A stretch of 32,000 nucleotides of DNA, taken from positions 5,557-37,556 of the forward strand of contig CAYFXO010000001.1 in the NCBI GenBank assembly GCA_964347125.1, in the 5' to 3' direction. Shown here in pieces: positions 9,413 through 29,300 of the stretch. The notes under the pieces are model-generated. The model worked only from the letters and a program-made list of their open reading frames with translations. It made no database searches and was not told the origin of the DNA. The first letter of the stretch is position 1; each line of letters starts with the position of its first letter. The stretch is from an uncultured Methanomassiliicoccales archaeon. GTDB taxonomy: Archaea; Thermoplasmatota; Thermoplasmata; RBG-16-68-12; CAYFXO01. The position numbers were made by a program, and so were the translations under genes.

Positions 9413-10636
9413 ATGCCCAGGCAATCCGACATGGACCTCTATCACTTCAAGCGGGAGCTGGAGGCGATCCAGAGGATCGAGGGACGCGGCACGGAACTGG
9501 TCAGTCTGTACGTCCCCCCGGGGAAGCAGATCAGCGACGTGGCGAACTACCTCCGGAACGAGCTCTCGGAGTCCTCGAACATCAAGTCCAAGAGCACCCG
9601 GAAGGCGGTCATGGGGGCCATCGAGTCCATCCTGTCCCGCCTGAAGCACTTCCGCCAGCCCCCGGAGAACGGCATGGTCTTCTTCGTGGGCCAGAAGCTC
9701 CTCGGCGGGGACAAGACGGAGCAGGTGGCGTACGTCATCGAGCCCCCCGAGCCCCTGGGCACGGACCTGTACCGGTGCGACTCCCGGTTCTACACGGAGC
9801 CGCTGGAGGAGATGCTGCAGGAGCGGGACCGCTACGGCCTCCTGGTCATGGACCGGGGCGAGGCGACCCTGGGCAGCCTCCGGGGGAAGCGCATCGAGCC
9901 CATCAAGAACATCCAGTCCCTCGTCCCCAGCAAGCACTCCAAAGGGGGGCAGTCCGCCCGACGCTTCGAGCGCCTCATCGAGATCGCCGCCCACGAGTTC
10001 TACAAGAAGGTGGGGGACCTGGCGAACGAGGCCTTCGCGGGGGAGGATCTGAAGGGCTTCCTCATCGGCGGGCCCGGGGCGACGAAGGACGCTTTCCTGA
10101 ACGGGAGCTACCTCCATCACGAGCTGAAGGGCCTGGTCCTGGGGCCGTTCGACACGGGCTACACGGACGAGTACGGGCTGCGGGAGCTCGTGGGGAAGGC
10201 CCAGGACACCCTCTCCGACCTCGCCCTGATGCGGGAGAAGGACCTCGTGCAGAAGCTCTTCGACGAGATCCGGAAGCCCCACGGCGGCCTGGCGGCGTAC
10301 GGGGAGGAGGAGGTGCTGCGGGCCCTCACCTCGGGGGCGGTGGACACCCTTCTCGTGTCGGAGACCCTGCGGAAGGACCGGGTGTCCTTGCGGTGCGCGT
10401 CCTGCGGTCACACGGAGGAGCGGACGGTGGAGGCGGGGAGCGACGCCATCGCGTGCCCCGAGTGCGGCGCGGCGGCGAGCGTCGGGGAGCGGGCGGACTT
10501 CGTCGACCACCTCCAGGGGCTCGCGGAGGCCTCGGGGAGCACCCTGGAGATTGTCTCAGGCGAGTCGGAGGAGGGGCAGCTGCTGATGAAGGCCTTCGGG
10601 GGCCTGGCGGCCCTCCTGCGGTTCCGGGTGAGCTGA
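9413..10636 (+). CDS. prf1: peptide chain release factor aRF1
   Basis: NIKS motif (SSNIKSKSTR) and GGQ motif (HSKGGQSARRFERL), with full-length eRF1/aRF1 architecture. Confidence 0.95.
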   Translation: MPRQSDMDLYHFKRELEAIQRIEGRGTELVSLYVPPGKQISDVANYLRNELSESSNIKSKSTRKAVMGAIESILSRLKHFRQPPENGMVFFVGQKLLGGDKTEQVAYVIEPPEPLGTDLYRCDSRFYTEPLEEMLQERDRYGLLVMDRGEATLGSLRGKRIEPIKNIQSLVPSKHSKGGQSARRFERLIEIAAHEFYKKVGDLANEAFAGEDLKGFLIGGPGATKDAFLNGSYLHHELKGLVLGPFDTGYTDEYGLRELVGKAQDTLSDLALMREKDLVQKLFDEIRKPHGGLAAYGEEEVLRALTSGAVDTLLVSETLRKDRVSLRCASCGHTEERTVEAGSDAIACPECGAAASVGERADFVDHLQGLAEASGSTLEIVSGESEEGQLLMKAFGGLAALLRFRVS

Positions 10637-12360
10637 TGACCCACGACCCCTGGGCGGCCGTCCTGGAGGAGGCGGAGGCGCTCCGGCAAAGCGCAGCGCG
10701 CGCCCTGGAGTACCCCGCCATCGACCTCCCCTTCCAGGAGCCGCCGGAGGGGCTGGGGGACTTGGGGTTCCCCGTGTTCCAGCTGGCGCCCGCCCTGCAG
10801 AGAAGCCCCGCGGAGATCGCGTCGGAGCTGGCGGGTGCCATGGAGGCGGGGGCCCTGCTGACGACCCACGCCGCCGAGGGCGGCTACGTGAACTCCCGCC
10901 TGGACCGGGAGGCCTTCGCCCGTCTCACGCTGACCTCCATCCTGGACCGGGAGGACGCCTACGGCACCCACCCGCCCAACAGCATCCGAGTCCTCGTGGA
11001 GCACACGAGCATCAATCCCACCGGCCCCGTCCACGTGGGGCGGGCGCGGAACGCCATCATCGGCGACACCCTGGCCCGCCTCCTGACGATGGCAGGGTAC
11101 GACGTTACCTCGGAGTACCTGGTGAACGACGCGGGCAAGCAGGCGGCCTCCCTGGCGTGGGGGGTCGCGAACGTCCCCGGGGACGACCTCCCGCCCCCCG
11201 CGCGGGAGAAGGAGGACCACGACCTCGTGCGCTACTACCAGAAGGCCAACGAGCTCATGGAGACGGACCGGAGCGTCTCCCTGGCGGTGGGGGACCTCGT
11301 GGTGGCCTTCGAGGGCGGGGACGAGGCCGTTGCGGCCCAAGTGAAGGACGCCGCGGGCCGGGTGATGGAGGGCATCCTGGAGAGCCTCCGGACCCTGGGC
11401 GTGGAGTACGACCGCCTGTTCTACGAGAGCGACGTCGTCCTGGGCGGACGGGTGGCCCGCGTGCTGGAGGACCTCCGCGAGCTCAAGGCCTACCACACGG
11501 AGGACGGGGCGGGGTTCCTGGACCTGGGGGCCTACGAGCTCCCCACCCGCGAGTCGAAGTATTTCCTCACCCGGGGAGACGGCTCCACCCTCTACACGAC
11601 CCGCGACATCGCCTACCACCTGGACAAGTTCACCCGGAGCGACGAGGCCATCAACGTCCTCGGGGAGGACCACAAGCTGGAGTGGCGGGCCCTCTGCGCG
11701 GCCCTGGACCTCATGGGCTCGACCCGCGCCCCGGAGGGGGTGTTCTACGCCTTCATCTCGCTGGAAGAGGGGAAGATGTCCACCCGGGCGGGGACCGTGG
11801 TGAACCTGGACGACCTGATGGACGAGGCCGTCGCCCGCGCCGCGGGGGAGGTGCGGAAGCGGCGGGAGGAGCTCGACGAGGAGGAGCGGGAGGCCATCGC
11901 CCGCATCGTGGGCCTCGGGGCGCTCCGGTACAACGTCATCCGGGTCCAGCCGGAGAAGCGCATAGTCTTCCGGTGGGAGGAGGCCCTGAACTTCGAGGGG
12001 GACAGCGCGCCTTTCATCCAGTACGCCCACGCGAGGACCTGCGGGATCCTCAGGAAGGCCGGGGAGGCGGGGGCCTGGGACGCCGCCGCGCTGAGCCACG
12101 AGCGGGAGGCGGACCTGGTGAGGGCCCTGGCGAAGCTCCCCCACACGATCCTCGAGGCCGCCCGCGCGCGTACGCCCCACACCCTCGCGACCTTCGCGAA
12201 CGCCGTCGCCGCCCTGTTCAACCAGTTCTACCGGGACTGCCCCGTCCTGCAGGCCCCCGACGACCTGCGGGACTCCCGGCTGGCCCTGGTGCGGGCGACC
12301 CGGGCCGTCCTCGCGAACTCCCTGGAGGGCCTGGGGATCCTGGCGCCCTCGGAGATGTAG
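10636..12360 (+). CDS. argS: arginine--tRNA ligase
   Basis: Start at ATG 10636, overlapping the aRF1 stop (TGATG). The class I HIGH-like motif is NPTGPVHVGRARNAIIGD and the KMSKS-like motif is GKMSTRAG. The C-terminal anticodon-binding DALR-type region ends ...GILAPSEM. The track ORF's N-terminal extension from 9775 is off-frame overlap with prf1. Confidence 0.95.
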   Translation: MTHDPWAAVLEEAEALRQSAARALEYPAIDLPFQEPPEGLGDLGFPVFQLAPALQRSPAEIASELAGAMEAGALLTTHAAEGGYVNSRLDREAFARLTLTSILDREDAYGTHPPNSIRVLVEHTSINPTGPVHVGRARNAIIGDTLARLLTMAGYDVTSEYLVNDAGKQAASLAWGVANVPGDDLPPPAREKEDHDLVRYYQKANELMETDRSVSLAVGDLVVAFEGGDEAVAAQVKDAAGRVMEGILESLRTLGVEYDRLFYESDVVLGGRVARVLEDLRELKAYHTEDGAGFLDLGAYELPTRESKYFLTRGDGSTLYTTRDIAYHLDKFTRSDEAINVLGEDHKLEWRALCAALDLMGSTRAPEGVFYAFISLEEGKMSTRAGTVVNLDDLMDEAVARAAGEVRKRREELDEEEREAIARIVGLGALRYNVIRVQPEKRIVFRWEEALNFEGDSAPFIQYAHARTCGILRKAGEAGAWDAAALSHEREADLVRALAKLPHTILEAARARTPHTLATFANAVAALFNQFYRDCPVLQAPDDLRDSRLALVRATRAVLANSLEGLGILAPSEM

Positions 12361-12402: not shown

Positions 12403-15400
12403 CTACTTCTTCACCTTCGGCTTCGCCCGCTTCTCGGGCTTCTCGCCCTTCTCCCGCCGACGGAAGCGGATCTCGCCGCGCTGGTACTTCTTGCGAAGCC
12501 ACAGGAGCACGGGGACCGCGATGATCAGCAGGATGATGGCCAGATAGATGAGGGGTCGGACGTAGCCGGGCTCGATGACCCGGACCCAGCCGGGGTTCGC
12601 GTCGTTCGTGTTGTCGCCCCACTCGCCGTCCCATTCGCCCTGGACGGAGGCATTGACGTAGATGGTGTAGTTCCCGATGACATCGCGGGAGAAGGTGATC
12701 TTCGCGGTCTTCGTCTCTCCCGCTGCGAGGCTGTTGTTGACCGGGAGGACCCCAGTCGCGTTGAACCACTGGACGTCCGCGGGGGTCTTCAGCGACACGC
12801 GGTTGCCCGTCTGCCCGCCGGAGAGGAACTCGAACTGCAGCTGGACGTTCGAGGCGTTCGCCCGGCCCTCCAGGTTCTCCACCTGGATGCTCAGGGTCGT
12901 CGTCTGTCCTTGCTCGATGGTGCGAGGCTTCGCGTCGAAGGAGGTGGAGAGCACCCGGACGTTCGGGCGGCTCTCGGGGTCGATGAGGACGACGAGGGTC
13001 ACGTTGACGCTCCCCACGTTCCCCGCCTGGTCCGTCACGTTCAGGGTGACGGTGTACCCCTCGAGGTTCACCTCGTCGTAGACGTGGCTCACGTTGATGA
13101 ACTCCCCGGGCTGGCCGGGGCCCATCCCTTCGCCGTCGTCGAAGGTCCAGTTGAAGGTGAGGTTCGTGATGTCGTCGAAGTTGTCCGTGGTGTCGCTGGC
13201 GTTGAAGTAGACCGTCTGGCCCTCGATGATCTGGACGACCTCCGCGAAGGTCTCGTTGAGGACGACGAACTCCGGCTGGGGCTCGGTGACGTCCTTCACC
13301 CGGACGGAGAGCGTGGCGTTCTGGCTCTCGTGGTCCACCACGTCCGTCACCTTGAGGGTCGCGTTGAACTCGCCGGGCTGGCTGTAGATCTGGGTGGCGG
13401 TCTCGCCGAAGCCGTCGACGGTCCCGTCGCCGTCCCAGTCCCACTCCCAGGTCCCGATGAGGCCGGGGACGGTGCCGAACATCGTGTCGGTGGAGTTGGC
13501 CCCGCTGAATTCCACGGAGGCGCCCTCCTCCACGACGAACGTGGTCCCGTCCATCTCGGCGCCCGAGGTGATGTCCGCGGCGGCCACCGGGTCCTCCACG
13601 TCCACGGAGACGGAGATGTCCCGATAGGTGACGTCCCCGCCCGCTTCCGTGACCGTGAGGTTCACGGTGAAGTTCCCGCCGACGGTGTAGTTGTGGGTGG
13701 CCTGGATGCCGTAGCCGATGAGGGAGGGGTTCGTGTTGTTCCGGAACCTCCAGGTGAAGTTCGCGAAGGGGGAGACGAGGCCGTCGGCGCTGTTCGGGTC
13801 CGTGGAGTCCTCGGCGGAGAACGTGATGTTCTCCATGCCCCGGACGATGACGGTGTAGTTCTCGAAGGACTCGTTGAGGGGGTGGAAGGTGCCGTTGACC
13901 ACCTTCGCCCGGGCCGTCCCGTTGGCGCGCCGCTGGATGTCCAGGGTGGCCGTGGGAACGTCGGGGGCGGAGGCGGGCTTCGTCTTCGGGTCCACGGTGA
14001 CCGTGGTGAAGCCCGTGACCGCGACGTTCGTCGGGTTCGTGGTGTTCCCCACGAGCTCGTACTGGGCGGGGAGTTCGAAGACATACTGGTAGTCCTTCGT
14101 GACCGCGCCGGTGCTGTCGTAGGTGCCGTTCACCACGAGGGTGTACTCCTCTAGGTCGAGTTCGGGGTCGGCCACTGCGTTGTAGATGGCCGTCATGTTG
14201 ACCCAGACCCGGCCGCCCGCGTCGATGGCGGAGTCCGCGTAGGGCGCGAAGGTGGCGGCGAAGGTCAGGGCGTCGCTGCGGTAGTACTCGTTGTCGACGG
14301 TGAGGACATCGCGGGTGACGACGAACCGCGGGCCGCGGTCGAAGAACCAGGTGAGGAAGTTGTCAATCTCCGCGGTCGTCAAGGTGCCGTCACCGTCGCC
14401 GAGGGCGGAGTCGATCTGCAGACGCAGGTTGCTGACCCCGGCGTTCTCCAGGCCGGGGACGGCGCTGTCCGCATTGAGGGACCAGGCCCGCTCGAGCTGG
14501 ATGACGTTCCAGTTCTCGGCGACAAAGCTCACGGTGTTCGTGAAGGTCTCCTTCTCCGCGAGGGAGAGGGTAATGTTGCCCAGGTTCACGGTGCTCCCGG
14601 CGACCGTCAGGCCGCTCAGGGTGTAGGCCGCGTATCCATCGGCGTCCACCACGAGGGTGAAGTTGCCGTTGTAGGTCCCGATCTCGAACTTCGGTCCCGC
14701 AGAGACGCGGGAGAGGGTGCGGTTGTTGTCCTCGTCGTAGAGGACGGCCTTGATGGTCTTCGTGATCCCGAGGCCGCTCGCCGCGTCGAAGACGCGGCCC
14801 CAGACGACTGTCTGAAAGAGGGTGACGTTGTATTCCGTGGGCCCGCCGAGGGGCACGGGCTCGTCCGCGACAGCGTACTCCCGGTCATAGTCGGCGGTGA
14901 GGACGTCGCCATTGAACAAGTCGACGAAGACCGTAATCTCACCGGTGACCAGGTCTGCGTTGTACTCCGAAGTGGGTGTTAGGGGAATCCCGTTCCTGTT
15001 TATCACCAGGGGTGGGATGGGTGGATAAGACAGTCGGCTCGTGTTTGTGAGGTACTCGTAGTCAATTTGGGCGGAGTGATTGTAGAAGCCGACGATGTCG
15101 TCGCCCGGGAATAAGGTCCACATCGAGAGGGACACAATCCCTGTGTTGCGATCAATGGTGTAGTTGGGCATGCCCATGCTAGCATTCTCCACGAGGGGGG
15201 TGTACTCGGTTCCATTCCAGTAGACGAGATCCTCGTTGAGGACGTAAGGGGACAGTCCCACCAGGGTCAGGGGGAACGCGGCCTCGCCGCCTATGGCGTC
15301 AAAGATATTCGTCGAGTTGTCCCAGAACACGGTATGGTTGTATGTCGCCGTTAGGTTGTATTGGGGCGGGAGAGGGGTGTTGTAGGTCACGATGCCCGCC

Positions 15401-16359
15401 GCGGCGTTCAGCACGTAGTCCGACCACACGCTCCCGTTGTTCCGGACCGTGATGTTGAGGATGTCCGCCTTGGCCAAGACCGCCTGGGCCTCGCCGCCGA
15501 GAGATTGCAGCACGAGGGTTTCAGAGAACTGCGCGGTGTAGTTGTAGGACGCGGTCACTTCCGCGTCCGGCCCAAGGGCGGGGGTGAAGCTGACCTCTCC
15601 CGTGGGATAATCTATCGTATAGTCCCCGGGAGACGTCAGGGTCACGGCGTCCGCCACGATCGTTTCTGAGCCGAGGACGACGTTTGGGTTCGCCAGGCGC
15701 CCCGTCTTGCCATGGGGCACAATGTCGATGGTCGCGAAGTGCGGCGAGAGGCCGGTGTGGGTGACGTGAATCTGGTAGGTCCCGCTGTAGAAGTCCAGCG
15801 CGTACGTGCCATCGGTCGCCGTGGTCGTGGCGTTGCTGTACCCCATGTCCGGGTCGATGAGCGTCACCGAGGCCCCCGCGAGGACCTTCCCCGCGGAGTC
15901 GCGGACGGTGCCGGACACCGTCGAGTCGATGACGCGCGTCTCGAGGGGGATGTCCCCGAGGGACTGGTTCTGCCCGAAGTCGAGACGAAGGACGCCGGTG
16001 GTGAAGGTGAAGTAGACCTTCCCGTCCTGGAAGGGGTTCGAGTCGGGTTGGATGATGACCTCGTAGTAGCTGGGCGCGGGAGCCTCCACCTGGAAGTAAC
16101 CGCCCTCGATCGAGAGGGTGTTGGCCACATCGGCGACGCCGTTGGAGATGTCGTCGAGGCGGACACGGATCCCGCTGAGGCCTTCCGCCGGGAGGTTGTA
16201 GGTGCCGGATGCGTCAGTGTCTTCGTAGACCCAGCCAAACAAAATGGGCTTGGCCTGGGTCGCGCTCGCATGCCAGCTCGGCAGTGCCGCCAAGGCGCCC
16301 ATCAGGACGAGGAGCGCCAGCAACACCGCTGCTACACCGTTGGCGTTTCCCGGTTTCAT
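12403..16359 (-). CDS. large cell-surface (S-layer/adhesin-like) glycoprotein: signal peptide, CarboxypepD_reg-like domains, repeated modules, 3 PKD domains, CARDB-like domain, C-terminal TM anchor
   Basis: Signal peptide MKPGNANGVAAVLLALLVLMGALAALPSWHASA. VSGTVRDSAGKVLAGASVTLID...TDGTYAL is carboxypeptidase-regulatory-like. It has three PKD-like units. The C-terminus has a TM helix (LIYLAIILLIIAVPVLLWL) followed by a Lys/Arg tail. There are very many N-x-S/T sequons. Confidence 0.9.
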   Translation of the reverse strand: MKPGNANGVAAVLLALLVLMGALAALPSWHASATQAKPILFGWVYEDTDASGTYNLPAEGLSGIRVRLDDISNGVADVANTLSIEGGYFQVEAPAPSYYEVIIQPDSNPFQDGKVYFTFTTGVLRLDFGQNQSLGDIPLETRVIDSTVSGTVRDSAGKVLAGASVTLIDPDMGYSNATTTATDGTYALDFYSGTYQIHVTHTGLSPHFATIDIVPHGKTGRLANPNVVLGSETIVADAVTLTSPGDYTIDYPTGEVSFTPALGPDAEVTASYNYTAQFSETLVLQSLGGEAQAVLAKADILNITVRNNGSVWSDYVLNAAAGIVTYNTPLPPQYNLTATYNHTVFWDNSTNIFDAIGGEAAFPLTLVGLSPYVLNEDLVYWNGTEYTPLVENASMGMPNYTIDRNTGIVSLSMWTLFPGDDIVGFYNHSAQIDYEYLTNTSRLSYPPIPPLVINRNGIPLTPTSEYNADLVTGEITVFVDLFNGDVLTADYDREYAVADEPVPLGGPTEYNVTLFQTVVWGRVFDAASGLGITKTIKAVLYDEDNNRTLSRVSAGPKFEIGTYNGNFTLVVDADGYAAYTLSGLTVAGSTVNLGNITLSLAEKETFTNTVSFVAENWNVIQLERAWSLNADSAVPGLENAGVSNLRLQIDSALGDGDGTLTTAEIDNFLTWFFDRGPRFVVTRDVLTVDNEYYRSDALTFAATFAPYADSAIDAGGRVWVNMTAIYNAVADPELDLEEYTLVVNGTYDSTGAVTKDYQYVFELPAQYELVGNTTNPTNVAVTGFTTVTVDPKTKPASAPDVPTATLDIQRRANGTARAKVVNGTFHPLNESFENYTVIVRGMENITFSAEDSTDPNSADGLVSPFANFTWRFRNNTNPSLIGYGIQATHNYTVGGNFTVNLTVTEAGGDVTYRDISVSVDVEDPVAAADITSGAEMDGTTFVVEEGASVEFSGANSTDTMFGTVPGLIGTWEWDWDGDGTVDGFGETATQIYSQPGEFNATLKVTDVVDHESQNATLSVRVKDVTEPQPEFVVLNETFAEVVQIIEGQTVYFNASDTTDNFDDITNLTFNWTFDDGEGMGPGQPGEFINVSHVYDEVNLEGYTVTLNVTDQAGNVGSVNVTLVVLIDPESRPNVRVLSTSFDAKPRTIEQGQTTTLSIQVENLEGRANASNVQLQFEFLSGGQTGNRVSLKTPADVQWFNATGVLPVNNSLAAGETKTAKITFSRDVIGNYTIYVNASVQGEWDGEWGDNTNDANPGWVRVIEPGYVRPLIYLAIILLIIAVPVLLWLRKKYQRGEIRFRRREKGEKPEKRAKPKVKK
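12988..13827 (-). repeat. three tandem PKD-like domains within the surface protein
   Basis: FSAEDSTDPN...FTWRF...HNYTVGGNFTVNLTVTEAGG; FSGANSTD...WEWDWDGDG...YSQPGEFNATLKVTD; FNASDTTD...FNWTFDDG...HVYDEVNLEGYTVTLNVTDQAGN. Confidence 0.8.
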
Positions 16360-16540: not shown

Positions 16541-16897
16541 TCAGCCCAGCTGCTCGGCCCGCCCCCAGACCTCCTCGGGGAGGCTGTCGTATGCGAACCC
16601 CTCGTCGGGACGGTCCTGCGGGGACTCCGCCTCGGACTCGTCGGGCAGCTCCCAGTAGAAGATCCGCCAGGACTTCCCGGAAGGCAGTAGCACGGTCTCC
16701 CAGGTGCTCCGCAGGAGCCCCAAGTCCTGCAGCCGGTAGAACAGCTTCCGGTCCTCACTGTCGATGGCGTTGTCGATGATTACGGTGCCGTAGCCGAAGT
16801 AGGAGAGGACCGTCTCCGCCATGCCCAAGGCTTCCGCTGACCCGATGCCCGCCTGCCTCTCGATGAGGCTGCCGAGGGTTTCCGGGGTCAGCACCAT
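16541..16897 (-). CDS. hypothetical protein (118 aa) with an acidic C-terminus
   Basis: High GC3, GAGGAGGAGG immediately upstream of ATG 16897, and a TATA-like element at 16934-16945. I recognise no family. Confidence 0.6.
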   Translation of the reverse strand: MVLTPETLGSLIERQAGIGSAEALGMAETVLSYFGYGTVIIDNAIDSEDRKLFYRLQDLGLLRSTWETVLLPSGKSWRIFYWELPDESEAESPQDRPDEGFAYDSLPEEVWGRAEQLG

Positions 16898-17058: not shown

Positions 17059-17235
17059 ATGAAGCGTCGGAGTCGGAAGAGCATGGTGGACATCCGCCGC
17101 GGGGTCACCGTGGTCCACCTGAACGTGGGCTCGGGCTACCTGACTTACCTGGCGACCCCCGGCGACGGGGTGCCGCGCCTCAAGACCATCCTTTTAAGGC
17201 GAAAGAAGCCTGAGGCATACGGCCAGGTTCCATGA
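17059..17235 (+). CDS. small basic hypothetical protein (58 aa)
   Basis: Absent from the track (<60 aa). MKRRSRKSMVDIRRGVTVVHLNVGSGYLTYLATPGDGVPRLKTILLRRKKPEAYGQVP. GC3 is high over most of its length. The stop overlaps the next ATG (ATGA at 17232-17235). Confidence 0.4.
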   Translation: MKRRSRKSMVDIRRGVTVVHLNVGSGYLTYLATPGDGVPRLKTILLRRKKPEAYGQVP

Positions 17236-17675
17236 AGGAAGAGGATCCCCGTTCCCGCCTCCGGACAGCCAAGCAGATCCGGGAGGAGTCCGAAGAGGAC
17301 GACTTCGACTTCGAGGCCGAGTACCCGCCGGAGGAGGGGTCGCCGGAGACCCCCGTGCGCATCCGGGAGTACTCGGATTGGGCACGGAGCGGCCGGTGCA
17401 TGGTGTGCGGGGAAGAGAAGGAGCCCTACGTCGAGGTGGAGGTGGGCGGCCAGTGGGAGTTCACCTGCCAGGCGTGCTACGAGCAGGAGACGGCCCCGAA
17501 GGAGCCGGCGGAGCCCGCGGGCGGGGTCGCATGCCCTTCCTGCGGCGCCCCCCTCCACCCGGGCGATCAGTTCTGCGGGAAGTGCGGTGCGGCGACGGAG
17601 GCCGCCTGCCCGGAGTGCGGCGCCGAGATGGAGCCCGGCGACAAGTTCTGCGGGAAGTGCGGCGCCTCACTTTGA
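17232..17675 (+). CDS. acidic N-terminus plus triple zinc-ribbon protein (double-zinc-ribbon type C-terminus)
   Basis: CMVCG...CQAC, CPSCGAPLHPGDQFCGKCG and CPECGAEMEPGDKFCGKCG. The last two are canonical DZR-style ribbons. Confidence 0.75.
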   Translation: MKEEDPRSRLRTAKQIREESEEDDFDFEAEYPPEEGSPETPVRIREYSDWARSGRCMVCGEEKEPYVEVEVGGQWEFTCQACYEQETAPKEPAEPAGGVACPSCGAPLHPGDQFCGKCGAATEAACPECGAEMEPGDKFCGKCGASL

Positions 17676-18665
17676 CCGCTTAACGGTGACCTTGCGGTCG
17701 GGGCCCGCGTAGGTCTTCGTGGGGAGGGGGTCCCCCTCCGTGACCTCGAACCGCCCGAGGTGCACCTCCACCCGTTCCACGTCGTCCTCCAGGGCAGGGA
17801 TCGTCCCCTCCGCCAGGGGCTGCCACAGGAGGTAGGTGATGTCGTCCACCACTTCGTCGACGAAGATGGCCTTCGCCGGCTCCGGCTCCACGGTGGCCGC
17901 GTAGATCATCGGCGAGAGGGAGACCTTCAGGTTGACGCTCAGCGTCCCGTCCTCGCGGCTGATCGTGAGGACATTCTCGCCCCCGGCGGAGCCCTCGAAG
18001 GGTCCCGCGCGGATTCGGTGCTCGTGACCGCGCCCCTCCTCCACGGAGACCGTCTCGGCCTTGAGGGACGCGACGACGTGCTCCGTGAGGGCCCGGGCCA
18101 GCTCCCCGATGGCGTCCGTACCCGACGCGGCCTCGACCTCCTTGGAGTACACGATACCCACGGAGGACTTGAAGGCGTGGAGGGTGGAGCGATAGGACAC
18201 CCGCTGCGTGACATCCACGGGGACCTCCTCCACCCCGTTCCCCTTCGCGTAGCAGCGGTAGTGGGTGCCGTTCGTGACGAGGGACACCCGGTTCCGGTCC
18301 TTCCCCGCCCGCGAGAGGAGGGTGCGGTCGTCGACACCGCTGTGGAAGACGTCCTCCGGGGAGTGGATGTGTCGGAAATCCCCGCCGTGGCCGCTCATGG
18401 ACGGGTGGGAGTGGTAGAGGCCCACGATCCCCACGTTCCGCGGGTACCGCCCTGCGACTTTCGCCTCCTCCAGGGGGTCCGCCTCCGCCCCGAAGCGGCT
18501 CTGGCGGCGGTAGACGGTGCACGGGATGGCCTCGCTGATCCGCACGGTGCCGCCTTCCTCGAAGCCCACGAGCCACCCGATGACCTCCCGCCCGCGGCGC
18601 TTCCACCCCCGCCGGGCGTGGTCTAGGAGGGCGTCCAAGGCGGACCGCTGCAGGACGACGCTCAC
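17667..18665 (-). CDS. JAB/MPN+ (JAMM) metalloprotease with an uncharacterised C-terminal domain of about 180 aa
   Basis: I place the start at GTG 18665, overlapping the E1 stop (GTGA). EVIGWLVG (Glu motif), GLYHSHP (HxH), then HSPED / HSGVD (SxxD candidates). The upstream track extension is Pro/Arg-rich and off-frame relative to the E1 gene. Confidence 0.85.
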   Translation of the reverse strand: MSVVLQRSALDALLDHARRGWKRRGREVIGWLVGFEEGGTVRISEAIPCTVYRRQSRFGAEADPLEEAKVAGRYPRNVGIVGLYHSHPSMSGHGGDFRHIHSPEDVFHSGVDDRTLLSRAGKDRNRVSLVTNGTHYRCYAKGNGVEEVPVDVTQRVSYRSTLHAFKSSVGIVYSKEVEAASGTDAIGELARALTEHVVASLKAETVSVEEGRGHEHRIRAGPFEGSAGGENVLTISREDGTLSVNLKVSLSPMIYAATVEPEPAKAIFVDEVVDDITYLLWQPLAEGTIPALEDDVERVEVHLGRFEVTEGDPLPTKTYAGPDRKVTVKRSK

Positions 18666-19420
18666 GGGCTCAGCCCCCCGCAGGTCGGGCATTTGGGGTC
18701 CCGCTCCCAGTCGTAGCGCTCCAGGGTGCCGTCCATCCCTTTGTACATGAGGTAGGCGGCCTGGTTCCCGAACTGGAGGAGGTACTTGAGGGCCTCCTGG
18801 CACTGGAGGCTCGCCACGATGGCCATGGTGGTGGGGAGGGAGGTGAAGTGGCAGAGGCCGGACTCATCGCGCCGGTGCTCGACCCGCCCCTCCTCCGTGG
18901 CGAGGGGCTTGTTGCAGCGGTAGCACGGGGTGCGGCCGGGGAGGATCACGTGGACGGAGCCGTTGATGCCGTCCTGGGAGGCCCCCGCGTCGATGAGGGC
19001 GCGCTTCGCGGGGACACACTTCGCGTTGAGGAACATCCGCACCTGGAAGGAGTCCACGCACCCCAGGATGAGGTCCGAGGCCTCGATCTCGCCCGCGAGG
19101 GCGTCGTACCCCTCCCCGTCCGTCACGTCGTGGGGGTGGGTCGTCACCTCCACGTCGGGGTTCGCGCGGTGGATGTAGGCCTTCATGGCGTCCACCTTCG
19201 GCATCCCGACCTGGGAGGGGTCGTAGATGAGGCGGTTGAGGTTCGCCTCCTCCAGGGTGTCGTAGTCCAGTAGGGCCAGATGGCCGACGCCGCACCGGGC
19301 GAGGATGTCCGCGGAGAGGGCGCCCAGGCCGCCGACGCCCACGATGGCGACCCGCTTGTCGACCAGGCCGGAGAAGTCGGCGAACTCGAAGAGCCGCAGG
19401 CGGGCGTAGCGCTCCGTCAT
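18662..19420 (-). CDS. UBA5-like E1 (ThiF/MoeB-fold Ubl-activating enzyme)
   Basis: [41 protein letters not shown] is the Rossmann/ATP site. CYRC and CPTC form the zinc pairs. [31 protein letters not shown] closely matches the remembered UBA5 catalytic-Cys region. ATG 19420 overlaps the E2 stop (ATGA); GTG 19426 is an alternative start. Confidence 0.9.
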   Translation of the reverse strand: [252 protein letters not shown]

Positions 19421-19884
19421 ATCCACCCCTTCGCCTTCATGTCATGGACCACGCTCCGGAGCCAGTAGGAGACCTCCCGCTTCAGGTAGAGGGCCATCCC
19501 CGCGTGGTCGTCCCACCAGTAGTCCTGCTCCATGTGCATGTCGCAAATCCGGAGGCCCAGGACGGGGTCGTCCAGCTTCCGGTCCGTGTAGTGCATCAGC
19601 TCGGGGATGCGGACCGCAGGGGGGGTGTGGGGGTAGGCGTCCTTGAGGACGAGCTCCAGGGTGAAGGCCTGGTCCGCCGCCCGGACCTCCCCCGTCCACC
19701 GGGTGGAATTGTGATCCCGGGCGTCCAGGGTGAACCACTCATTGCCCTCCAGGTAGCGCAGGTACTCGGAGAACTTCTGGAGGGCGTAGCGCTCCTCCTT
19801 CACCCGCGTGGGCCACGCGTCGTCCCGCGGGGAGGCGACCGTCGCGCATTGCAGGAAGTAGAAGAGGTCGTCCTCCCTAGCCAT
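19417..19884 (-). CDS. UFC1-like E2 (Ubl-conjugating enzyme)
   Basis: SPRDDAWPTRVKEERY, WFTLDARDHNSTRWTGEV, YPHTPPAVRIPEL and GLRICDMH (Cys114) parallel the remembered human UFC1 blocks GPRDRELWVQRLKEEY, WFRLESNKEGTRWFGKC, YPTTAPEIAVPEL and GGKICLTDH (Cys116). Confidence 0.85.
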   Translation of the reverse strand: MAREDDLFYFLQCATVASPRDDAWPTRVKEERYALQKFSEYLRYLEGNEWFTLDARDHNSTRWTGEVRAADQAFTLELVLKDAYPHTPPAVRIPELMHYTDRKLDDPVLGLRICDMHMEQDYWWDDHAGMALYLKREVSYWLRSVVHDMKAKGWI

Positions 19885-19888
19885 GGGC

Positions 19889-20134
19889 TCAACCGACGAT
19901 GCTCGGATCGATGACGTGGATGTTGGTGCCGCTCTGGGCCACCTCGTCCACGGTGCCGCCCTCGATGGGGGAGCCCCCGGGGAACGTGGCGGTGAGGATG
20001 GAGGGGTCGCGCCCCTGGCGCTTCGCCGCCATGACCAGGGCCTCCTGGAACAGCATGGCGTTCGGCACCTTCAGGGAAACGACGGGCTTCTCGGGGTCCG
20101 AGATGAAGACGAACCGGAGGGTCGTGTGGGTCAT
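19889..20134 (-). CDS. UFM1-like ubiquitin-fold modifier (81 aa), ends ...IVG-stop
   Basis: FISDPEKPVVSLKVPNAMLFQEALVMAAKRQ...NIHVIDPSIVG aligns without gaps to the remembered human UFM1 [31 protein letters not shown]...ELRIIPRDRVG(SC). AGGTG lies 5-6 nt before ATG 20134. Confidence 0.8.
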   Translation of the reverse strand: MTHTTLRFVFISDPEKPVVSLKVPNAMLFQEALVMAAKRQGRDPSILTATFPGGSPIEGGTVDEVAQSGTNIHVIDPSIVG

Positions 20135-20163: not shown

Positions 20164-20176
20164 GGTTTATTTAGGG
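20164..20176 (-). promoter_or_regulatory. TATA-like promoter of the Ubl-E2-E1-JAMM operon
   Basis: The minus strand reads CCCCTAAATAAACCCC about 35 nt upstream of ATG 20134. Confidence 0.4.
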
Positions 20177-23394: not shown

Positions 23395-26300
23395 TTGGTG
23401 GGGAATGGAGGAGTCGATTTGAGCCCGCGCATCCACTCGCGCCTACTGAGCGTATTGGTCGTTGTCACGCTGTCCTCCTCCGCGTTCGCGTTCTTCCCCG
23501 CGGCGACGGGCGACGTCACAGACGGCGTGGACGTGGCCCCCGCGGACGATTCCCTCGGTCCCGCGGCCCCCACCACGGAGGACCCGCAGACGATCGCGGG
23601 CCTCTATAAACTCGAGGCGGGCCTCCGAAGCCACCTCGACTCCAAGGAGACCGTCCGCGTCCTCATCGCGACCTACGACGTGGGCGCCCTCGGCGTGGCC
23701 CTGGGGGCGGGGGCGGTGGACGCCGCCGACCTCGGTGCCAAGGCCCCCGGCCTCGCGGTCCCCATGGTGGACCTCCAGGGCGTCCGCCTCAAGGAGATCG
23801 CCGCCCTGGACTCCACCGTCGCCATCATGGAGTGGCGGCCCCCGGAGCGGCAGGTCGTTGAGACCGTGGACACCTTCTCGAAGAAGGGCGTGCGCCCCAG
23901 CAACCTCAACTCCACCCTGAACCACCTGGCCCCCCAGGCGTGGGCCGCGGGGTGGACGGGCGACGGGGTGCGCATCTCCGTCATGGACGACGGGGTGGAC
24001 TTCGCCCACCCGGACCTCATGGGGACCATGGCCCGGTTCAACTGGACGAACCTCCCCGCGAACATCCAGGCCGCGAAGCCCCACCTCCGGCACTACGACA
24101 ACTGGCCCATGGCCTTCGACCCCTTCTCCATGTCCAGCTTCATGATGAACAACGGCGAGGCGGAGGGGACGTGGTACGGGAACACCACCTCCACGGACCG
24201 CAACGTCACCCACACCATCCGGATCGACGGCCGGAACGACTTCTGGGACGACGGGAGCGAGCTCGTCGCCACCGACCTCCGGGGGGACATCAACGTCGGC
24301 CAGCCGTCCCACCTGGGGAACGACTTCGACCTCGTCTCCCTGTACGCCACCCAGGACGCGGACTGGTGGTATTTCGGCTTCGACACCTTCACGAACCAGT
24401 CGGACGTGGCCTTCGGCCTCTACATCGACACGGACAACGTCACGGGGTCGGGCGGGGACGTGGACCCGCGAGCGGGGAGCCTCATCACCGCCGTGCCCGA
24501 GCACCGCCCGGAGTTCGTCGTCTACATCGACCACCTGGGCGGGCAGCCCCCGGGGCAGTACGACCGGAACGACACCGTGGAGAACGGGACGGTCTACACC
24601 TGGCTGGGCTCCGCCTGGGACGCCGGGGTGAACATCACGGAGTTCCCCATCAACGGGCAGATCAGCTACAGCGCCTGGGACTTCGAGGATGAGGAGGCGT
24701 TCCTGGAGTTCTCCCTGCCCAAGGCGTTCCTAGGGGACCCCCAGCAGCTCGCGGTGGAGCTGTTCACCGCGGGGGTGAACGCGTCCCACGCCCTGGACAC
24801 CGCCTACTCCGACCCGAACGTGAACTTCCCAGCCCCCGACTGGACGCCGACGCCCACCCAGCTCTCCGCGTTCACCTACGTGGGGCGGGGCTTCTGGATC
24901 CACACCTACGTCCGCTCCGACGACACCGTCGCGGGGAAGCCGAACGTCCAGATGTCGTGGCCCCTGGAGTACCAGGTCACGGGGACCAGCAAGAGCGGCG
25001 GCTACTACTTCGGCGACCACCCGGACGACAACTACCCCCTCACCCGGATTCTCGTGGTGGACGAGGCGGTGGCGGGGGTGTACGACACCGTCTACGTGGA
25101 CCTGGACCACAACCGGGACTTCACGAACGACAAGCCCCTGAAGAAGTACGGGAAGTACTGCGCGGACAAGCAGTGGCGGCCCGCGGACGACCCCGTGGCC
25201 TGCCCGGTCTACGACGAGACCTCGTGGCTGGACTTCTTCGACCCCGCCTCGGGGGTGACGTCCATCGACTACGCCCCGAACGGGACGTGGATTGCCACCG
25301 GGTCCAACGACCACCGGATCCTCCTGTGGGACGCCGCCTCCGGCGCCCAGGTCAACGAGTTCCACGCCCACCGCGGGCGGGTGACGTCCGTGGCCTGGGA
25401 CCTTGCGGGGCTACGCCTCGCCGCGGGCTATGCCGACGCCTCCGGCCGCGGGCAGCACGCCGTGGTCGTGTGGAACTGGGACGGCACGGTGGCCGCCACG
25501 TTCACCGAGAGCGACGGCGGGCACACCGCGGGGGTCACCGCCGTGGCGTGGGACCCCGTCGGGGCGAACAACCGCCTCGTCTCCGCGTCGATGGACGGCA
25601 CCGCGAAGGTCTGGAACGTCGGAACGGGCCTCGTGGCCACCCTCACCGGACACACGGCCGCCGTCGGGACCGCGGACTGGGGCGCCAACGGCATCGCCAC
25701 CGGCTCTGACGACGGGACCGTGCGCCTCTGGGACGCCTCGTGGACCGAGGCGGACTCGGTGGCCCACGGCACGCCCCTCAACGCCATCGCGTTCAGCCCG
25801 AACGGGACGTGGCTCGCCTACGGCGACCGGGCGGGGCTCCTGAGCGTGTGGGACGTGGTCCTGGACGCCTGGAGCACCTGGTCCATCCCCGAGCACCAGA
25901 CCCTCCCGATCACCTCCGTATCCTGGTCCCCCGTGGCCTCCCAGCTCCTCACCACCTCCACGTGGGACGAGGAGACGAACAACTTCGTCCTCGCCCGGTG
26001 GACGGTCAACAACTACAACGACTTCTTCGTCACCGGCTCCAAGACGGGGCAGGCGGCCCACGAGGCCAGCGTGTTCTCCGGGACCTGGTCCACCGACGGC
26101 CTCTCCGTCGTCTCCGGCGGGGAGGAGGCCCGGGCGCGGCGGTGGACGAGCGCCACCCTCTCCCTGGAGGGAGACTACAAGGGCCACGCCCTGGGGTCCA
26201 CCGACTACACGTGGTACCTCACGGGCGACGGCGTCCCGGACGTCTCCGGCGGGATCATCTACTTCATCGCGCAGAACGAGTGGGACTTCGGCAGCGGGAC

Positions 26301-29300
26301 CCTGGAGCAGGTGCCCATCCCCTACTCGGACGTGTGGATCGCCCGCCAGCCGGCCGTGCTGGACCTGCAGAACATCATCCCCGCCAACGGGACCGTCGTC
26401 GCCTTCATGGGCGCCCTGGACCTGGACCAGGGCCACGGCACCCTCGTCGCGTCGAGCCTCGTGGGGCGCGGCCAGTCCACCTACTTCGACGAGGGGACCA
26501 TGGACGTCCCCACGGTGGGCCACGTCATCGGGTTCGCCCCTGACGCCCTCCTCGTGCCCGTGGCGAACGTCTACGCCACGAACTTCTACGACGGCTGGTA
26601 CTTCTCGGTGGAGGGCTACGACGGCACCCCGAACACGGGGGACGAGGCCCACATCATCTCGAACTCCTTCGGCTTCTCCGGGACCTACCACGACGGGTGG
26701 GACTTCAACGCCCGGTTCCTGGACTACCTGGTGAACGACCACGCGGACGGGAACGTGACGATCACGGTGTCCTCGGGGAACTCCGGGTGGGGGTACGGGA
26801 CGGTGTCCACCCCCGCGGCGTCCCCCGCGGTCATCACCGTCGGCGCGGCCACGGACTTCTTCTACCGCCACCTCTCGGGGCTGGAACGGGGCCTCAACCC
26901 GACGTTCGGGGAGGTCACCCCGGAGTCCTCCCGCGGGCCCACGGCCCAGGGGATGCCGGACCCGGACGTGGTGGCGAACGGCCGCATGGCCTTCGGGTCT
27001 GTCGCCCTGAACCAGGTGGACTACCGCCCCTACAACGGCTACGAGGCCACGAACCTCTGGGCGGGGACGTCCCTGGCCTCGCCGGGGGCTGCGGGGATGC
27101 TCGCCCTGGCCTTCCAGGCGTACAAGGAGGCCAACGGGGCGTTCCCCAACGCGAGCGTCGCCAGGAGCCTCCTCATGAGCGGGGCGGACAATCTGAAGTA
27201 CGACCCGCTGGTCCAGGGGGCGGGGCGGGTGAACGCCCTCCGCACCGCGCAGTTGGCGGCCGGGCAGGACGGCTTCCTCGTGGCGCCGAACCTGTGGAAC
27301 CCCGGGGACTACCAGGGCACCCGGTACGAGTCGTTCGCCCACCTCATGGACCCGGGGGACAGCGCCCAGGAGACCTTCACCGTCACGAACGTCGCCCCGG
27401 CGCCGGACACCCTCACCCTCACGGACGCGGTCTTCCAGAAGACCTCCGAGGTGAACTTCACCTTCCAGACCCAGACGGACCTCCCCAACGACCCCGCCCA
27501 CTGGTTCCTCATCCTCCACGGCCTCCCCCTGGCCCTGACGGGGACGGGGGTGTACGACAAGAATTACCAGAAGGTCGCGGCCATCGACGAGGGTGAGTGG
27601 CTGAACGCGGACCTCCTGCGGATCAGCTACCGGGTTCCCATCGGCGACCTGGATCCCGACGGCGACGGGAACACGAACTACTCCTACTTCCTCGAGGTCA
27701 TGGACTGGTCCGAGGACGACTGGACGATGTTCCCGCCGGAGCCGAACACGGGGGCCTTCAGCGACCTGAACCGCCGCCTCATCGTGTTCCCCGACGCGAA
27801 CGTGTGGGAGGGGCGCATCCACGACCCCGCGGGGCGGACCCACGACGGGTTGGCGATGGGCGTCCGGGCGGGCATCCAGCCGGGGAAGCCCGGGGCCGCG
27901 GGGATCAACTTCCTGGTGACCCTGGAGTTCTACCAGAAGGCGGACTGGAACTGGCTGAGCCTCAGCACGGGCTCTCTGTCCCTGGCGGGCGGGGAGACGC
28001 AGACCTTCACCTCGACGGTGGACGTCCCCGCGGGGACCCCCATCGGCGGCTACGAGGGGGCCATCTACATCCAGGGCGACCCCGCCACCGCCTCCGCCAC
28101 TCGGTCGATCCAGGTGCCCTTCTTCGCCAGCTGGGTGTCCGCGGACCACCAGGACATCTCCGCCCTCACGGTCCTCAGGAACGGCGTCCCCCAGACGGCG
28201 GGGGTGGACTACCTGGAGTACCTGGCCGCCGGGATGGTCAACTTCACCGCCCCGCTGAACCCCGGCGACGTGGTGCAGATGGACTACACCTACGCGAACA
28301 CCACGACGATTCCCGTGGTGATCAACGTCCCCTCGAACCAAGTGGAGTTCGGCTTCGGGCAGGACGCGCCGGGGCAGGACGACCTGTTCCGGAACCGCGT
28401 CGTGGGGGGCTTCGGGCAGGGCACCCAATCCGGGGACTGGCGGTTCTACTTCGTGGACGTCCCCGACCAAGGGCAGTTCTCCATCGAGAGCGGCTCGAAG
28501 TTCTTCCTGGACCTCCAGTGGGACCTGGACATGACGGACATCAACGGGTACGCGTTCGGGCCGGGGGCGGTGCCCATCGCCGCGGGCCTCACCGCGGGGG
28601 CGTTCCCCCAGAGCCGGTACGGGCCCTACCTGCTGTACACGACCAACGGCGGCTCCGAGGAGACGGCCACGTTCTTCACGACCACGGGCGGGCCGGAGGA
28701 GATCGTGGCCCCGGGCCTCGTGGGGGGCCTGAACGTCCTGGCGATCCAGAACGTCCTGATGAACGGGACCTACGCGTCGGAGGCCGTCTCCGGGCAGGTG
28801 GGGAGCATGCGCGTGAACCCGCCGGAGATCAAGGTGGTGACGAACGAGCTCTCCGGGTCCCGGGATGTCCTCCTGTACTCCAGCGTGCCGTGGCCCGGCA
28901 TCGGGAGCGTCTCCGCGGGGCCGTCCGCCCCGGAGGAGTTCCTCGACGTCCCCATCCAGCAGGACGTCATCGAGGGCGGCACCTTCATCGACCTCCTCGT
29001 GGGCGGCTCCTACACGAAGGTCGTCAACGTGGAGCCCAGCGCCCTCATCTTCGACGTCCACATCACCTCGAACCCCGGGGACCCGCCGGAGGGGACGGCG
29101 GAGCCCTGCGACGACCTGGACCTGGCCCTGTTCCTCGACGGGAAAGGGCCGGACAACGTGCCGGACGGCGCGGCCCAGGTGGAGGAGTTCGTCGTCTACG
29201 ACGCGGACGCCGACGCGGACGAGCACATCCGCCTCATCAAGCCGACGGTGCAGGACGACCCGGACACGCCCGAGGTCAACGAGGGCGTCGTCGGGGCGCC

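Follow-up and report, generated by a model that had tools for sequence, protein, structure and literature searches.

A predicted UFM1-type conjugation operon with a JAMM protease in the chromosomes of Thermoplasmatota archaea

A stretch of 32,000 nt from the genome of an uncultured Methanomassiliicoccales archaeon (Thermoplasmatota; RBG-16-68-12; CAYFXO01; assembly GCA_964347125.1, contig CAYFXO010000001.1, positions 5,557-37,556 of the forward strand), referred to here as the window, carries a chromosomal operon of four genes which probably encodes a complete, minimal conjugation system of the UFM1 type. The products are a ubiquitin-like modifier (Ubl) resembling UFM1, an E2 resembling UFC1, an E1 resembling UBA5 and a putative protease of the JAMM/MPN+ family. 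The Ubl, E1 and E2 are the closest prokaryotic look-alikes of human UFM1, UBA5 and UFC1, and the operon encodes homologues of the three core components of the pathway with all catalytic residues in place, together with an intact JAMM protein. An earlier interpretation of the window, made without database searches (the sequence-only reading), had proposed an archaeal operon of this kind; the observation was confirmed by the present analysis and the proposal was supported, with corrections, one of them being that the operon is not unique to the lineage of the window, as homologous cassettes are also found in Asgard archaea.

This operon runs counter to what has been published on where UFC1 and UFM1 occur. 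Ufm1 was reported to be missing from both Archaea and Bacteria (Grau-Bove, 2015; PMC4327156), and UFM1, UFC1, UFSP2 and C53 were later described as exclusive to eukaryotes, whilst homologues of UBA5 were found in diverse prokaryotes, with a bacterial origin favoured, and UFL1 and DDRGK1 were traced to Asgard archaea (Picchianti, 2023; PMC10183829). More recently, Ufm1 homologues were reported from Asgard archaea and from no other prokaryote, in a study which does not mention UBA5 or UFC1 (Kostlbacher, 2026; PMC12962969). A search for UFC1-, UFM1- or UBA5-like proteins from archaea and from Thermoplasmatota in particular, in a body of literature that was itself incomplete, gave no description of the cassette. 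Pfam already tags the archaeal E2s as UFC1, so that what is new is the recognition of the whole system, which appears, on the evidence of the encoded proteins, to be a prokaryotic, operonic, E3-less UFM1-type system using a JAMM protease.

The E2, the E1 and the modifier

The likeness of the E2 to UFC1 put forward in the sequence-only reading was upheld. The protein scored 49.4 bits on the Pfam UFC1 profile (PF08694; gathering score 25), with an alignment covering profile positions 11-151 of 155, and did not fall into a generic prokaryotic E2 family, its scores on Prok-E2_B (19.4 bits) and UQ_con (15.2 bits against a cut-off of 27) both being under the cut-off. When phmmer was used to search the PDB, 26 of the 27 matches were to UFC1 structures, the remaining one being a weak match to a canonical E2 (E = 0.087). 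The putative catalytic residue, Cys114, pairs with the active-site cysteine of human UFC1 (in the motif KICL), and the canonical HPN motif was looked for in the window E2 and found to be absent. The family to which this protein belongs is a small one, with 104 homologues in a collection of 5.8 billion proteins, all of them annotated as hypothetical and every named one coming from a Thermoplasmata, Methanomassiliicoccales or 'Methanobacteriota' metagenome-assembled genome (MAG). Nearly all of the 104 carry a precomputed PF08694 match, and Cys114 and the surrounding ICDMHME motif are close to invariant throughout the family. A second cysteine close to the N-terminus, Cys13 (window 19846-19848, motif FLQCAT), is also near-invariant in Thermoplasmatota; no counterpart of it was noted in UFC1.

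The E1 contains a ThiF-fold adenylation domain (Pfam ThiF, 179.5 bits), and its closest relatives of known structure are UBA5 proteins: five UBA5 entries headed the list when phmmer was run against the PDB (167-170 bits, the highest 169.8), compared with 113.4 bits for MoeB and 86.2 bits for ThiF, giving UBA5 a lead of 56 bits over MoeB. Scores on the corresponding NCBIfam models were all under their cut-offs (MoeB 132 against 266, ThiF 123 against 275, UbaA 123 against 450). Overall identity in a multiple alignment does not separate the two candidates, as the window E1 is 37% identical to human UBA5 and 37% identical to Escherichia coli MoeB. What distinguishes them is an insert of five residues bearing the putative catalytic cysteine (GLC190HFTSLPTT), which is common to the window E1, human UBA5 and the Asgard E1s and is not present in E. 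coli MoeB or ThiF in the same alignment. The column in question corresponds to Cys250 of human UBA5 and holds a cysteine in 29 of the 32 aligned sequences, human UBA5 included, the exceptions being MoeB and ThiF, which have a gap here, and the E1 of a Heimdallarchaeota contig, in which the cysteine lies one column over. Two CxxC motifs of the zinc site are found at residues 166 and 244, and the protein terminates five residues past the second of these, without a rhodanese domain. The earlier identification of this protein with UBA5 stands for the adenylation domain and the cysteine-bearing insert, with the correction that the window E1 does not have the C-terminal tail of UBA5.

The E1s of seven other Thermoplasmatota loci (L020-L022, L025 and L027-L029) and both Asgard E1s (L030, positions 10204-11139, and L033, positions 21-857) end in tails 20-45 aa long which are acidic and probably helical, an example being ...ELENIDELFEKLM immediately before the stop codon; the window E1 has none. 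An apparent likeness of these tails to the UFC1-binding sequence of UBA5 was not borne out, a profile built from them matching only PPR repeats in the PDB and not UBA5.

The modifier was assigned largely by way of its fold. An AlphaFold2 model built on 24 homologues had a mean confidence (pLDDT) of 90.1, and when this model was compared with the PDB using Foldseek all of the top ten matches were UFM1, with template-modelling (TM) scores of 0.81-0.87, root-mean-square deviations (rmsd) of 1.2-1.5 Å and identities of 19-23%. SUMO and ubiquitin gave TM scores of about 0.65-0.70 and an rmsd of about 3 Å, and no MoaD, ThiS or SAMP structure was found among the top 50 matches, so that the predicted fold does not group the protein with the sulfur carriers. 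Sequence profiles point in the same direction once the Asgard proteins are brought in. Pfam Ufm1 was matched by four of 14 Ubl orthologues, all at E >= 0.026; a profile of Thermoplasmatota sequences alone retrieved UFM1 as its sole match in the PDB, at E = 0.97, and a profile of Asgard sequences alone did not retrieve UFM1. With a joint Thermoplasmatota and Asgard profile, the top 14 matches were all UFM1 (best E = 1.9e-5), the alignment running through UFM1 from end to end and placing the terminal Val-Gly of the archaeal proteins against the Val-Gly of UFM1.

In the part that could be aligned, the Ubl orthologues from the 27 loci with the gene show 68-75% identity. The window protein ends in a single glycine after valine (...SIVG) and most orthologues stop at the same glycine; several, however, run on beyond it, with the endings VGSC, VGFR, VGFQ, VGT, VGSR, VGSLPPSIL and VGGLPALDSGALTV. 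Such extensions imply that these proteins would undergo proteolytic maturation, as is the case with pro-UFM1. The blocks of residues which the sequence-only reading had given as common to the archaeal proteins and those of the human pathway were reproduced by alignment tools. The residues it had singled out, Cys114 in the E2 and Cys190 in the E1, were found at the positions it gave, and the lack of an HPN motif was confirmed.

The JAMM protein and related cassettes in Asgard archaea

The fourth protein is predicted to be an Rpn11-like JAMM enzyme and not a protease of the UFSP type. Two Pfam profiles matched it, Prok-JAB at 26.7 bits and JAB at 25 bits, and the residues of the JAMM motif (E27, H85, H87, S109 and D112) are in place, the E, HxH and SxxD elements being kept in all 23 of the complete orthologues aligned. 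Foldseek gave Rpn11 and the Rpn11 of Caldiarchaeum as the best matches for the N-terminal domain, whilst peptidase C78, the UFSP type, was sought in the four operon proteins, their orthologues and the neighbouring proteins without a match. Between the HSHP and FHSxxD segments lies an insert of variable length, from 0 to about 15 aa (residues 89-105, window 18350-18400), which may act as a regulatory or substrate-gating loop. The AlphaFold2 model of the protein had a pLDDT of 82, falling below 50 at residues 91-95 and 108-124. The C-terminal domain of about 175 aa is conserved and had no match in Pfam.

The only structure in the PDB which Foldseek matched over the full length of the JAMM protein was that of UfSP/ODR-8 from Caenorhabditis elegans (5xda), over 367-373 alignment columns, with a query-normalised TM score (TMq) of 0.46-0.49, E = 2e-5 to 8e-5 and 7% identity; matches confined to the MPN domain reached a TMq of at most 0.35. 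In C. elegans UfSP/ODR-8 the cysteine-protease domain is preceded by an MPN domain and by a domain termed 'new', and human ODR4, the partner and endoplasmic reticulum (ER) anchor of UFSP2, consists of a pseudo-MPN domain and the same 'new' domain (PMC10952357, PMC13137144). A search with the JAMM protein gave no sequence match to the UfSP or ODR4 sequences in the PDB. It is possible, though this is a tentative proposal drawn from modelled structures and rather less likely to be right than wrong, that all four archaeal genes have descendants in the eukaryotic UFM1 pathway, and that the archaeal JAMM protein resembles the ancestor of the MPN module of ODR4 and ODR-8, being still active where that module is dead. 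Were this so, UFMylation would have arisen as a four-gene archaeal cassette, shared by Asgard archaea and Thermoplasmatota, to which eukaryotes later added the cysteine protease and the E3, and such an origin would take the place of the published 'mosaic' one, with its bacterial UBA5 and its eukaryote-specific UFC1 and UFM1.

The relatives of the cassette outside Thermoplasmatota were found through the E2. A profile of the E2 family, searched against 1.84 billion cluster representatives, recovered 43 proteins at E <= 1e-3. Beyond the family itself, the full-length members examined were eukaryotic UFC1s (RGGKICL..HF.PL) and a set carrying the motif ICH[DEQ]H[MIL], of which three were named as Asgard (Promethearchaeota, Heimdallarchaeota and Lokiarchaeota) and the rest were metagenomic proteins. 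On the Heimdallarchaeota contig (L030) the E2 gene is clustered with three others, which encode a protein of 91 aa with the ending VG-LL, a JAB protein of 377 aa and an E1 resembling UBA5 (154 bits to UBA5 against 97 bits to MoeB), and on the Promethearchaeota contig (L033) the genes follow the order E1-JAB-Ubl-E2 on a single strand. Identities between the Heimdallarchaeota and window proteins were 39% for the E1, 34% for the JAB domain and 24% for the E2. An alignment of the Asgard and Thermoplasmatota Ubl profiles covered both in full (HHalign E = 2e-4, probability 45%), and HHalign of the JAMM protein to the Asgard JAB proteins aligned the MPN domain only, the C-terminal regions not being alignable. 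The Asgard E2s are larger, at 165-203 aa, and have the ICxxHM and REV..W motifs in common with the window E2; the scores of Asgard-type E2s on Pfam UFC1 were 22-32 bits, against 49 for the window E2.

Neighbour-joining (NJ) bootstrap trees were built for both enzymes; they are rough, with few outgroups and a thin sampling of other prokaryotic E1 families, and are to be read as indicative only. In the E1 tree, E. coli MoeB and ThiF were split from all other sequences in 100% of replicates, so that the archaeal E1 did not fall inside a MoeB/ThiF clade, and human UBA5 grouped with the Asgard E1s in 78% of replicates and with those of Thermoplasmatota in 21%. In the E2 tree the three groups (Thermoplasmatota, Asgard and eukaryotic) were each monophyletic at 100%, and the mean distance to eukaryotic UFC1 was 1.86 for the Thermoplasmatota E2s and 2.33 for the Asgard E2s.

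Some further features of the Asgard loci were observed. The Heimdallarchaeota cassette (WJIK01000029.1, L030 3990-14566) is partly duplicated: a UFC1-like E2 and a JAB protein are each encoded twice, one of the JAB proteins having an N-terminal membrane segment, and the cassette adjoins two EAP30 genes (ESCRT-II Vps22/36-like) and a gene whose 383-aa product bears a zinc ribbon at its C-terminus. A Lokiarchaeota protein of 866 aa (MBN1800750.1, P0166) combines SIR2-like and TPR regions with a weakly UFC1-like region at its C-terminus (20.9 bits, gathering score 25), and by analogy this fusion may indicate that some relatives take part in conflict systems.

Organisation, distribution and genomic neighbourhood of the operon

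The open reading frames (ORFs) and their junctions were exactly as described in the sequence-only reading, with four tightly packed genes on the minus strand (Table 1). The modifier and E2 genes are separated by a gap of 4 nt (TGA-GCCC-ATG), and the E2/E1 and E1/JAMM pairs overlap by 4 nt, at ATGA and GTGA respectively. The start of the E1 was set at an ATG, and not at the GTG two codons earlier given in the ORF list, because orthologues start with MTERY. Between the TATA-like box upstream of the modifier and the ATG of that gene lies a Shine-Dalgarno-like AGGTG (20144-20140). The 27 orthologous loci that include the start of the modifier gene were compared by eye, and in most of them an AT-rich box (TTTATA, TAAATA or ATATATAA) was found at a similar distance 5' of the gene; the conservation of this box fits a single archaeal promoter, in line with the one TATA-like element recognised earlier. 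A scan for sigma-70 promoters gave no match, as would be expected for an archaeon, and scans for promoters and terminators of the bacterial type were uninformative. The GC content at third codon positions (GC3) is 0.88-0.97 across all four frames, comparable to that of the adjacent housekeeping genes, and the GC content of the window is even throughout, at 0.62-0.73, which bears out the earlier description of composition and codon usage as native.

Table 1. Positions of the operon, its parts and neighbouring features, in window coordinates.
Feature	Position	Strand	Length	Description
Four-gene operon	17667-20134	-		Gene order Ubl-E2-E1-JAMM
UFM1-like Ubl gene	19889-20134	-	81 aa	Ends ...IDPSIVG, then stop; from ORF list and sequence
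UFC1-like E2 gene	19417-19884	-	155 aa	Putative catalytic Cys114 in RICDMHME; no HPN
UBA5-like E1 gene	18662-19420 (from ATG)	-	252 aa	Adenylation domain only; putative catalytic Cys190
JAMM/MPN+ gene	17667-18665 (GTG start)	-	332 aa	Two-domain putative metalloprotease
TATA-like promoter box	20166..20173	-		TAAATAAA; 39 nt upstream of Ubl ATG; read from sequence
Double-zinc-ribbon protein	17232..17675	+	147 aa	Acidic N-terminal region; Pfam DZR 55.8 bits
DUF6015 protein	16541..16897	-	118 aa	Operon strand, downstream; Pfam DUF6015 56.2 bits
Giant predicted surface protein	23395-31755	+	2786 aa	WD40 beta-propellers, subtilase S8, Ig-like and glucodextranase-B-like repeats
Envelope protein	12403-16359	-	1318 aa	PKD and carboxypeptidase-regulatory-like domains, many N-x-S/T sequons, C-terminal membrane anchor
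aRF1	9413-10636	+		Directly upstream of arginyl-tRNA synthetase-like gene (region 9413-12360)

Synteny was surveyed by scanning a single genome for each GTDB species. The survey gave 28 loci, which without exception lie in Thermoplasmatota MAGs, some of these being closed chromosomes. At every locus where the contig allows it to be seen, the four genes follow the order Ubl-E2-E1-JAMM on one strand. The E2 and E1 genes overlap in nearly all loci and the E1 and JAMM genes overlap or lie within 1 nt of each other in most, with gaps of 17-47 nt in one sub-clade. An apparent loss of the JAMM gene at one locus (L019) was ruled out, the gene being hidden by a masked run of N. The recurrence of this order and of the coupling between the genes is far beyond chance.

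The surroundings of the operon recur as well. The double-zinc-ribbon gene converges on the JAMM gene, the 3' ends of the two overlapping by 9 nt, and in 19 of the 28 loci (20 at a looser threshold) a gene of this kind comes next after JAMM, on the other strand; it was not detected at the most divergent loci (L027-L029). Of the 28 loci, 13 have the DUF6015 gene downstream of the operon. Both proteins could be partners or substrates of the system, or could simply be neighbours. Several orthologous loci have relatives of the giant surface protein upstream of the operon, and the PKD envelope protein is likewise kept downstream in several. Also in the window are the aRF1 gene, a gene for a ThiD-ThiN fusion and an arginyl-tRNA synthetase-like gene, which was identified by eye from its HVGR and KMSTR motifs and which the ORF list fuses into an ORF of 861 aa starting inside aRF1 in another frame. 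The retention of the same neighbours across species whose E2s are only 55-75% identical argues for vertical inheritance and not for the turnover seen in defence islands. The operon is thus a chromosomal, vertically inherited feature of a Thermoplasmatota clade, and neither contamination nor a mobile island.

Alternative explanations, proposed pathway and comparison with known systems

Operons of the bacterial Bil type have an identical four-part make-up (Ubl, E2, E1 and JAB), and the sequence-only reading had left room for a role in antiviral defence of this kind, whereby the modifier would be conjugated to viral or host proteins during infection, as in Bil or CBASS Cap2/Cap3-like systems, and the likeness to UFM1 would be superficial. 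The E1 does match PADLOC models of the CBASS 'E1-E2' at up to 90 bits, with the E2 matching weakly (22 bits), and the Lokiarchaeota SIR2-TPR protein with its weakly UFC1-like region (20.9 bits, below 25) could be taken as a further hint. However, the PADLOC matches reflect the generic adenylation fold only, the JAB protein scored 13.6 bits and the Ubl had no match, and the best matches of the proteins are UFM1, UFC1 and UBA5 rather than BilA-D. The chromosomal neighbours are stable (the zinc-ribbon gene, DUF6015, the PKD surface protein and the giant surface protein), the nearby genes aRF1, ArgRS and ThiDN are housekeeping genes, and a scan of viral contigs found no copy of the operon. A defence role is therefore disfavoured, and we consider it distinctly unlikely. 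A sulfur-carrier system, in which the E1 mainly forms a thiocarboxylate for cofactor synthesis or tRNA thiolation and conjugation is incidental, as with SAMP/UbaA or Urm1/Uba4, has in its favour that the E1 is a ThiF-family domain about 37% identical to E. coli MoeB, that the NCBIfam models of MoeB, ThiF and UbaA give it 120-130 bits, and that the JAMM protein weakly matches the haloarchaeal desampylase model (38.5 bits). All of these NCBIfam scores nevertheless lie far under their cut-offs, which for the desampylase is 130, and an E2 with a conserved active-site cysteine is always present in the loci; to our knowledge, sulfur-carrier systems have no E2. The predicted fold of the modifier is that of UFM1, with MoaD, ThiS and SAMP outside the Foldseek top 50, its C-terminus is Val-Gly rather than Gly-Gly, and the E1 has no rhodanese domain, all of which makes this explanation very unlikely.

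The remaining alternative is that the genes are of eukaryotic origin, through contamination of the assembly or recent horizontal transfer into the archaeal lineage. The Thermoplasmatota E2 is indeed nearer to eukaryotic UFC1 than are the Asgard E2s (1.86 against 2.33) and the window E2 scores higher on Pfam UFC1 (49 bits against 22-32). Yet GC and GC3 are native, the gene overlaps are prokaryotic and the promoter box archaeal; identity to the eukaryotic proteins is about 20-37%; the protease is a JAMM protein and not the eukaryotic UFSP; and the E1 tree places human UBA5 beside the Asgard E1s (78%) in preference to those of Thermoplasmatota (21%). The sequence-only reading had named a chimeric assembly with eukaryotic DNA as one finding that would overturn it; eukaryotic contamination is excluded because the same operon is present in 28 Thermoplasmatota MAGs, closed chromosomes among them, and a eukaryotic origin as a whole appears extremely unlikely.

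Several observations nevertheless weigh against regarding the operon as a complete UFM1-type system. The window modifier by itself had no match to Pfam Ufm1 (PF03671) at E <= 10 and a search of the PDB with its sequence gave nothing significant, so that the earlier claim of a match to UFM1 holds by fold and by the joint profile and does not hold by the protein's own sequence; the assignment depends on the modelled structure and on the joint profile, for which the Asgard sequences are needed. The window E1 lacks the C-terminal UFM1-interacting and UFC1-binding sequences of UBA5, and the mechanism of binding in trans used by the eukaryotic enzyme cannot, as a consequence, operate as such. Eukaryotic UFC1 depends on the UFL1-DDRGK1 scaffold E3, and those window genes that were scanned with Pfam and NCBIfam included no homologue of UFL1, DDRGK1, CDK5RAP3 or UFSP, as the sequence-only reading had also noted for the genes of the E3 complex. 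The tentative nature of the trees, mentioned above, should likewise be borne in mind.

With these points considered, the most probable interpretation remains that of a minimal UFM1-type conjugation system, and its operation can be sketched from the established chemistry of UBA5, UFC1 and the JAMM/Rpn11 enzymes. An E1 dimer would adenylate Gly81 of the modifier using ATP and would then hold the modifier as a thioester on Cys190, from which it would be handed to Cys114 of the E2, and the E2 would transfer it onto target lysines without a dedicated E3. The JAMM protein would trim the C-terminal extensions found in some orthologues, thus baring the glycine, and would also reverse the conjugates, thereby taking on the role which in eukaryotes belongs to the cysteine proteases UFSP1 and UFSP2. 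In the simplest reading, an archaeal cassette of such a kind gave rise to the eukaryotic trio of UFM1, UBA5 and UFC1.

The finding takes the core of the UFM1 pathway beyond the Asgard archaea to 28 Thermoplasmatota species and shows its three components to have been linked in archaea already, which opens the origin and ancestral function of UFMylation to tests by phylogeny and biochemistry. A small, E3-less system with a minimal E1 would be well suited to mechanistic study of the transfer from UBA5 to UFC1, and it allows the question to be asked of what role UFM1-type tagging plays in a cell without an endoplasmic reticulum.

The archaeal system bears a close resemblance to eukaryotic UFMylation in its components: a modifier with the UFM1 fold, a C-terminal Val-Gly and precursor extensions in some orthologues; a UBA5-type adenylation domain with its cysteine in the same insert and two CxxC motifs; and an E2 recognised by Pfam UFC1, with its cysteine aligned and no HPN motif. 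It differs in that the genes form one operon in a host without an ER, in that the E1 is without the UFM1-interacting and UFC1-binding sequences and no UFL1, DDRGK1 or CDK5RAP3 was seen among the window genes scanned, and in that the protease is a JAMM metalloenzyme as opposed to the C78 cysteine proteases UFSP1/2. The Asgard cassettes (L030 and L033) are similar in clustering a Ubl (VG plus extension), a UFC1-like E2, a UBA5-like E1 and a JAB protein with a long C-terminal region, but they have other gene orders, larger E2s which score lower on UFC1, and JAB C-terminal regions that cannot be aligned with those of Thermoplasmatota.

Amongst prokaryotic systems, Bil (BilABCD) and CBASS Cap2/Cap3 likewise place a Ubl, an E2, an E1 and a JAB deconjugase in a tight operon, but the E1, E2 and Ubl belong to other families, and the context here is stable and housekeeping-like, with no viral copies. 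Sampylation (SAMP/UbaA/HvJAMM1) has in common with the present operon an archaeal ThiF-family E1, a beta-grasp modifier and a JAMM deconjugase; however, it has no E2, the window E1 and JAMM proteins score far below the UbaA and desampylase cut-offs, and the modifier is unlike MoaD and SAMP. The ubiquitin operon of Caldiarchaeum subterraneum (Ub, E1, E2, RING E3 and Rpn11) differs from the one described here, whose modifier is UFM1-like, whose E2 is of the UFC1 type (UQ_con 15 bits against a cut-off of 27) and which has no RING E3. It too, nonetheless, is an operon from an archaeon that encodes a Ubl cascade like those of eukaryotes, and its Rpn11-like JAMM protein is the best match, in both sequence and structure, for the N-terminal domain of the window JAMM protein.

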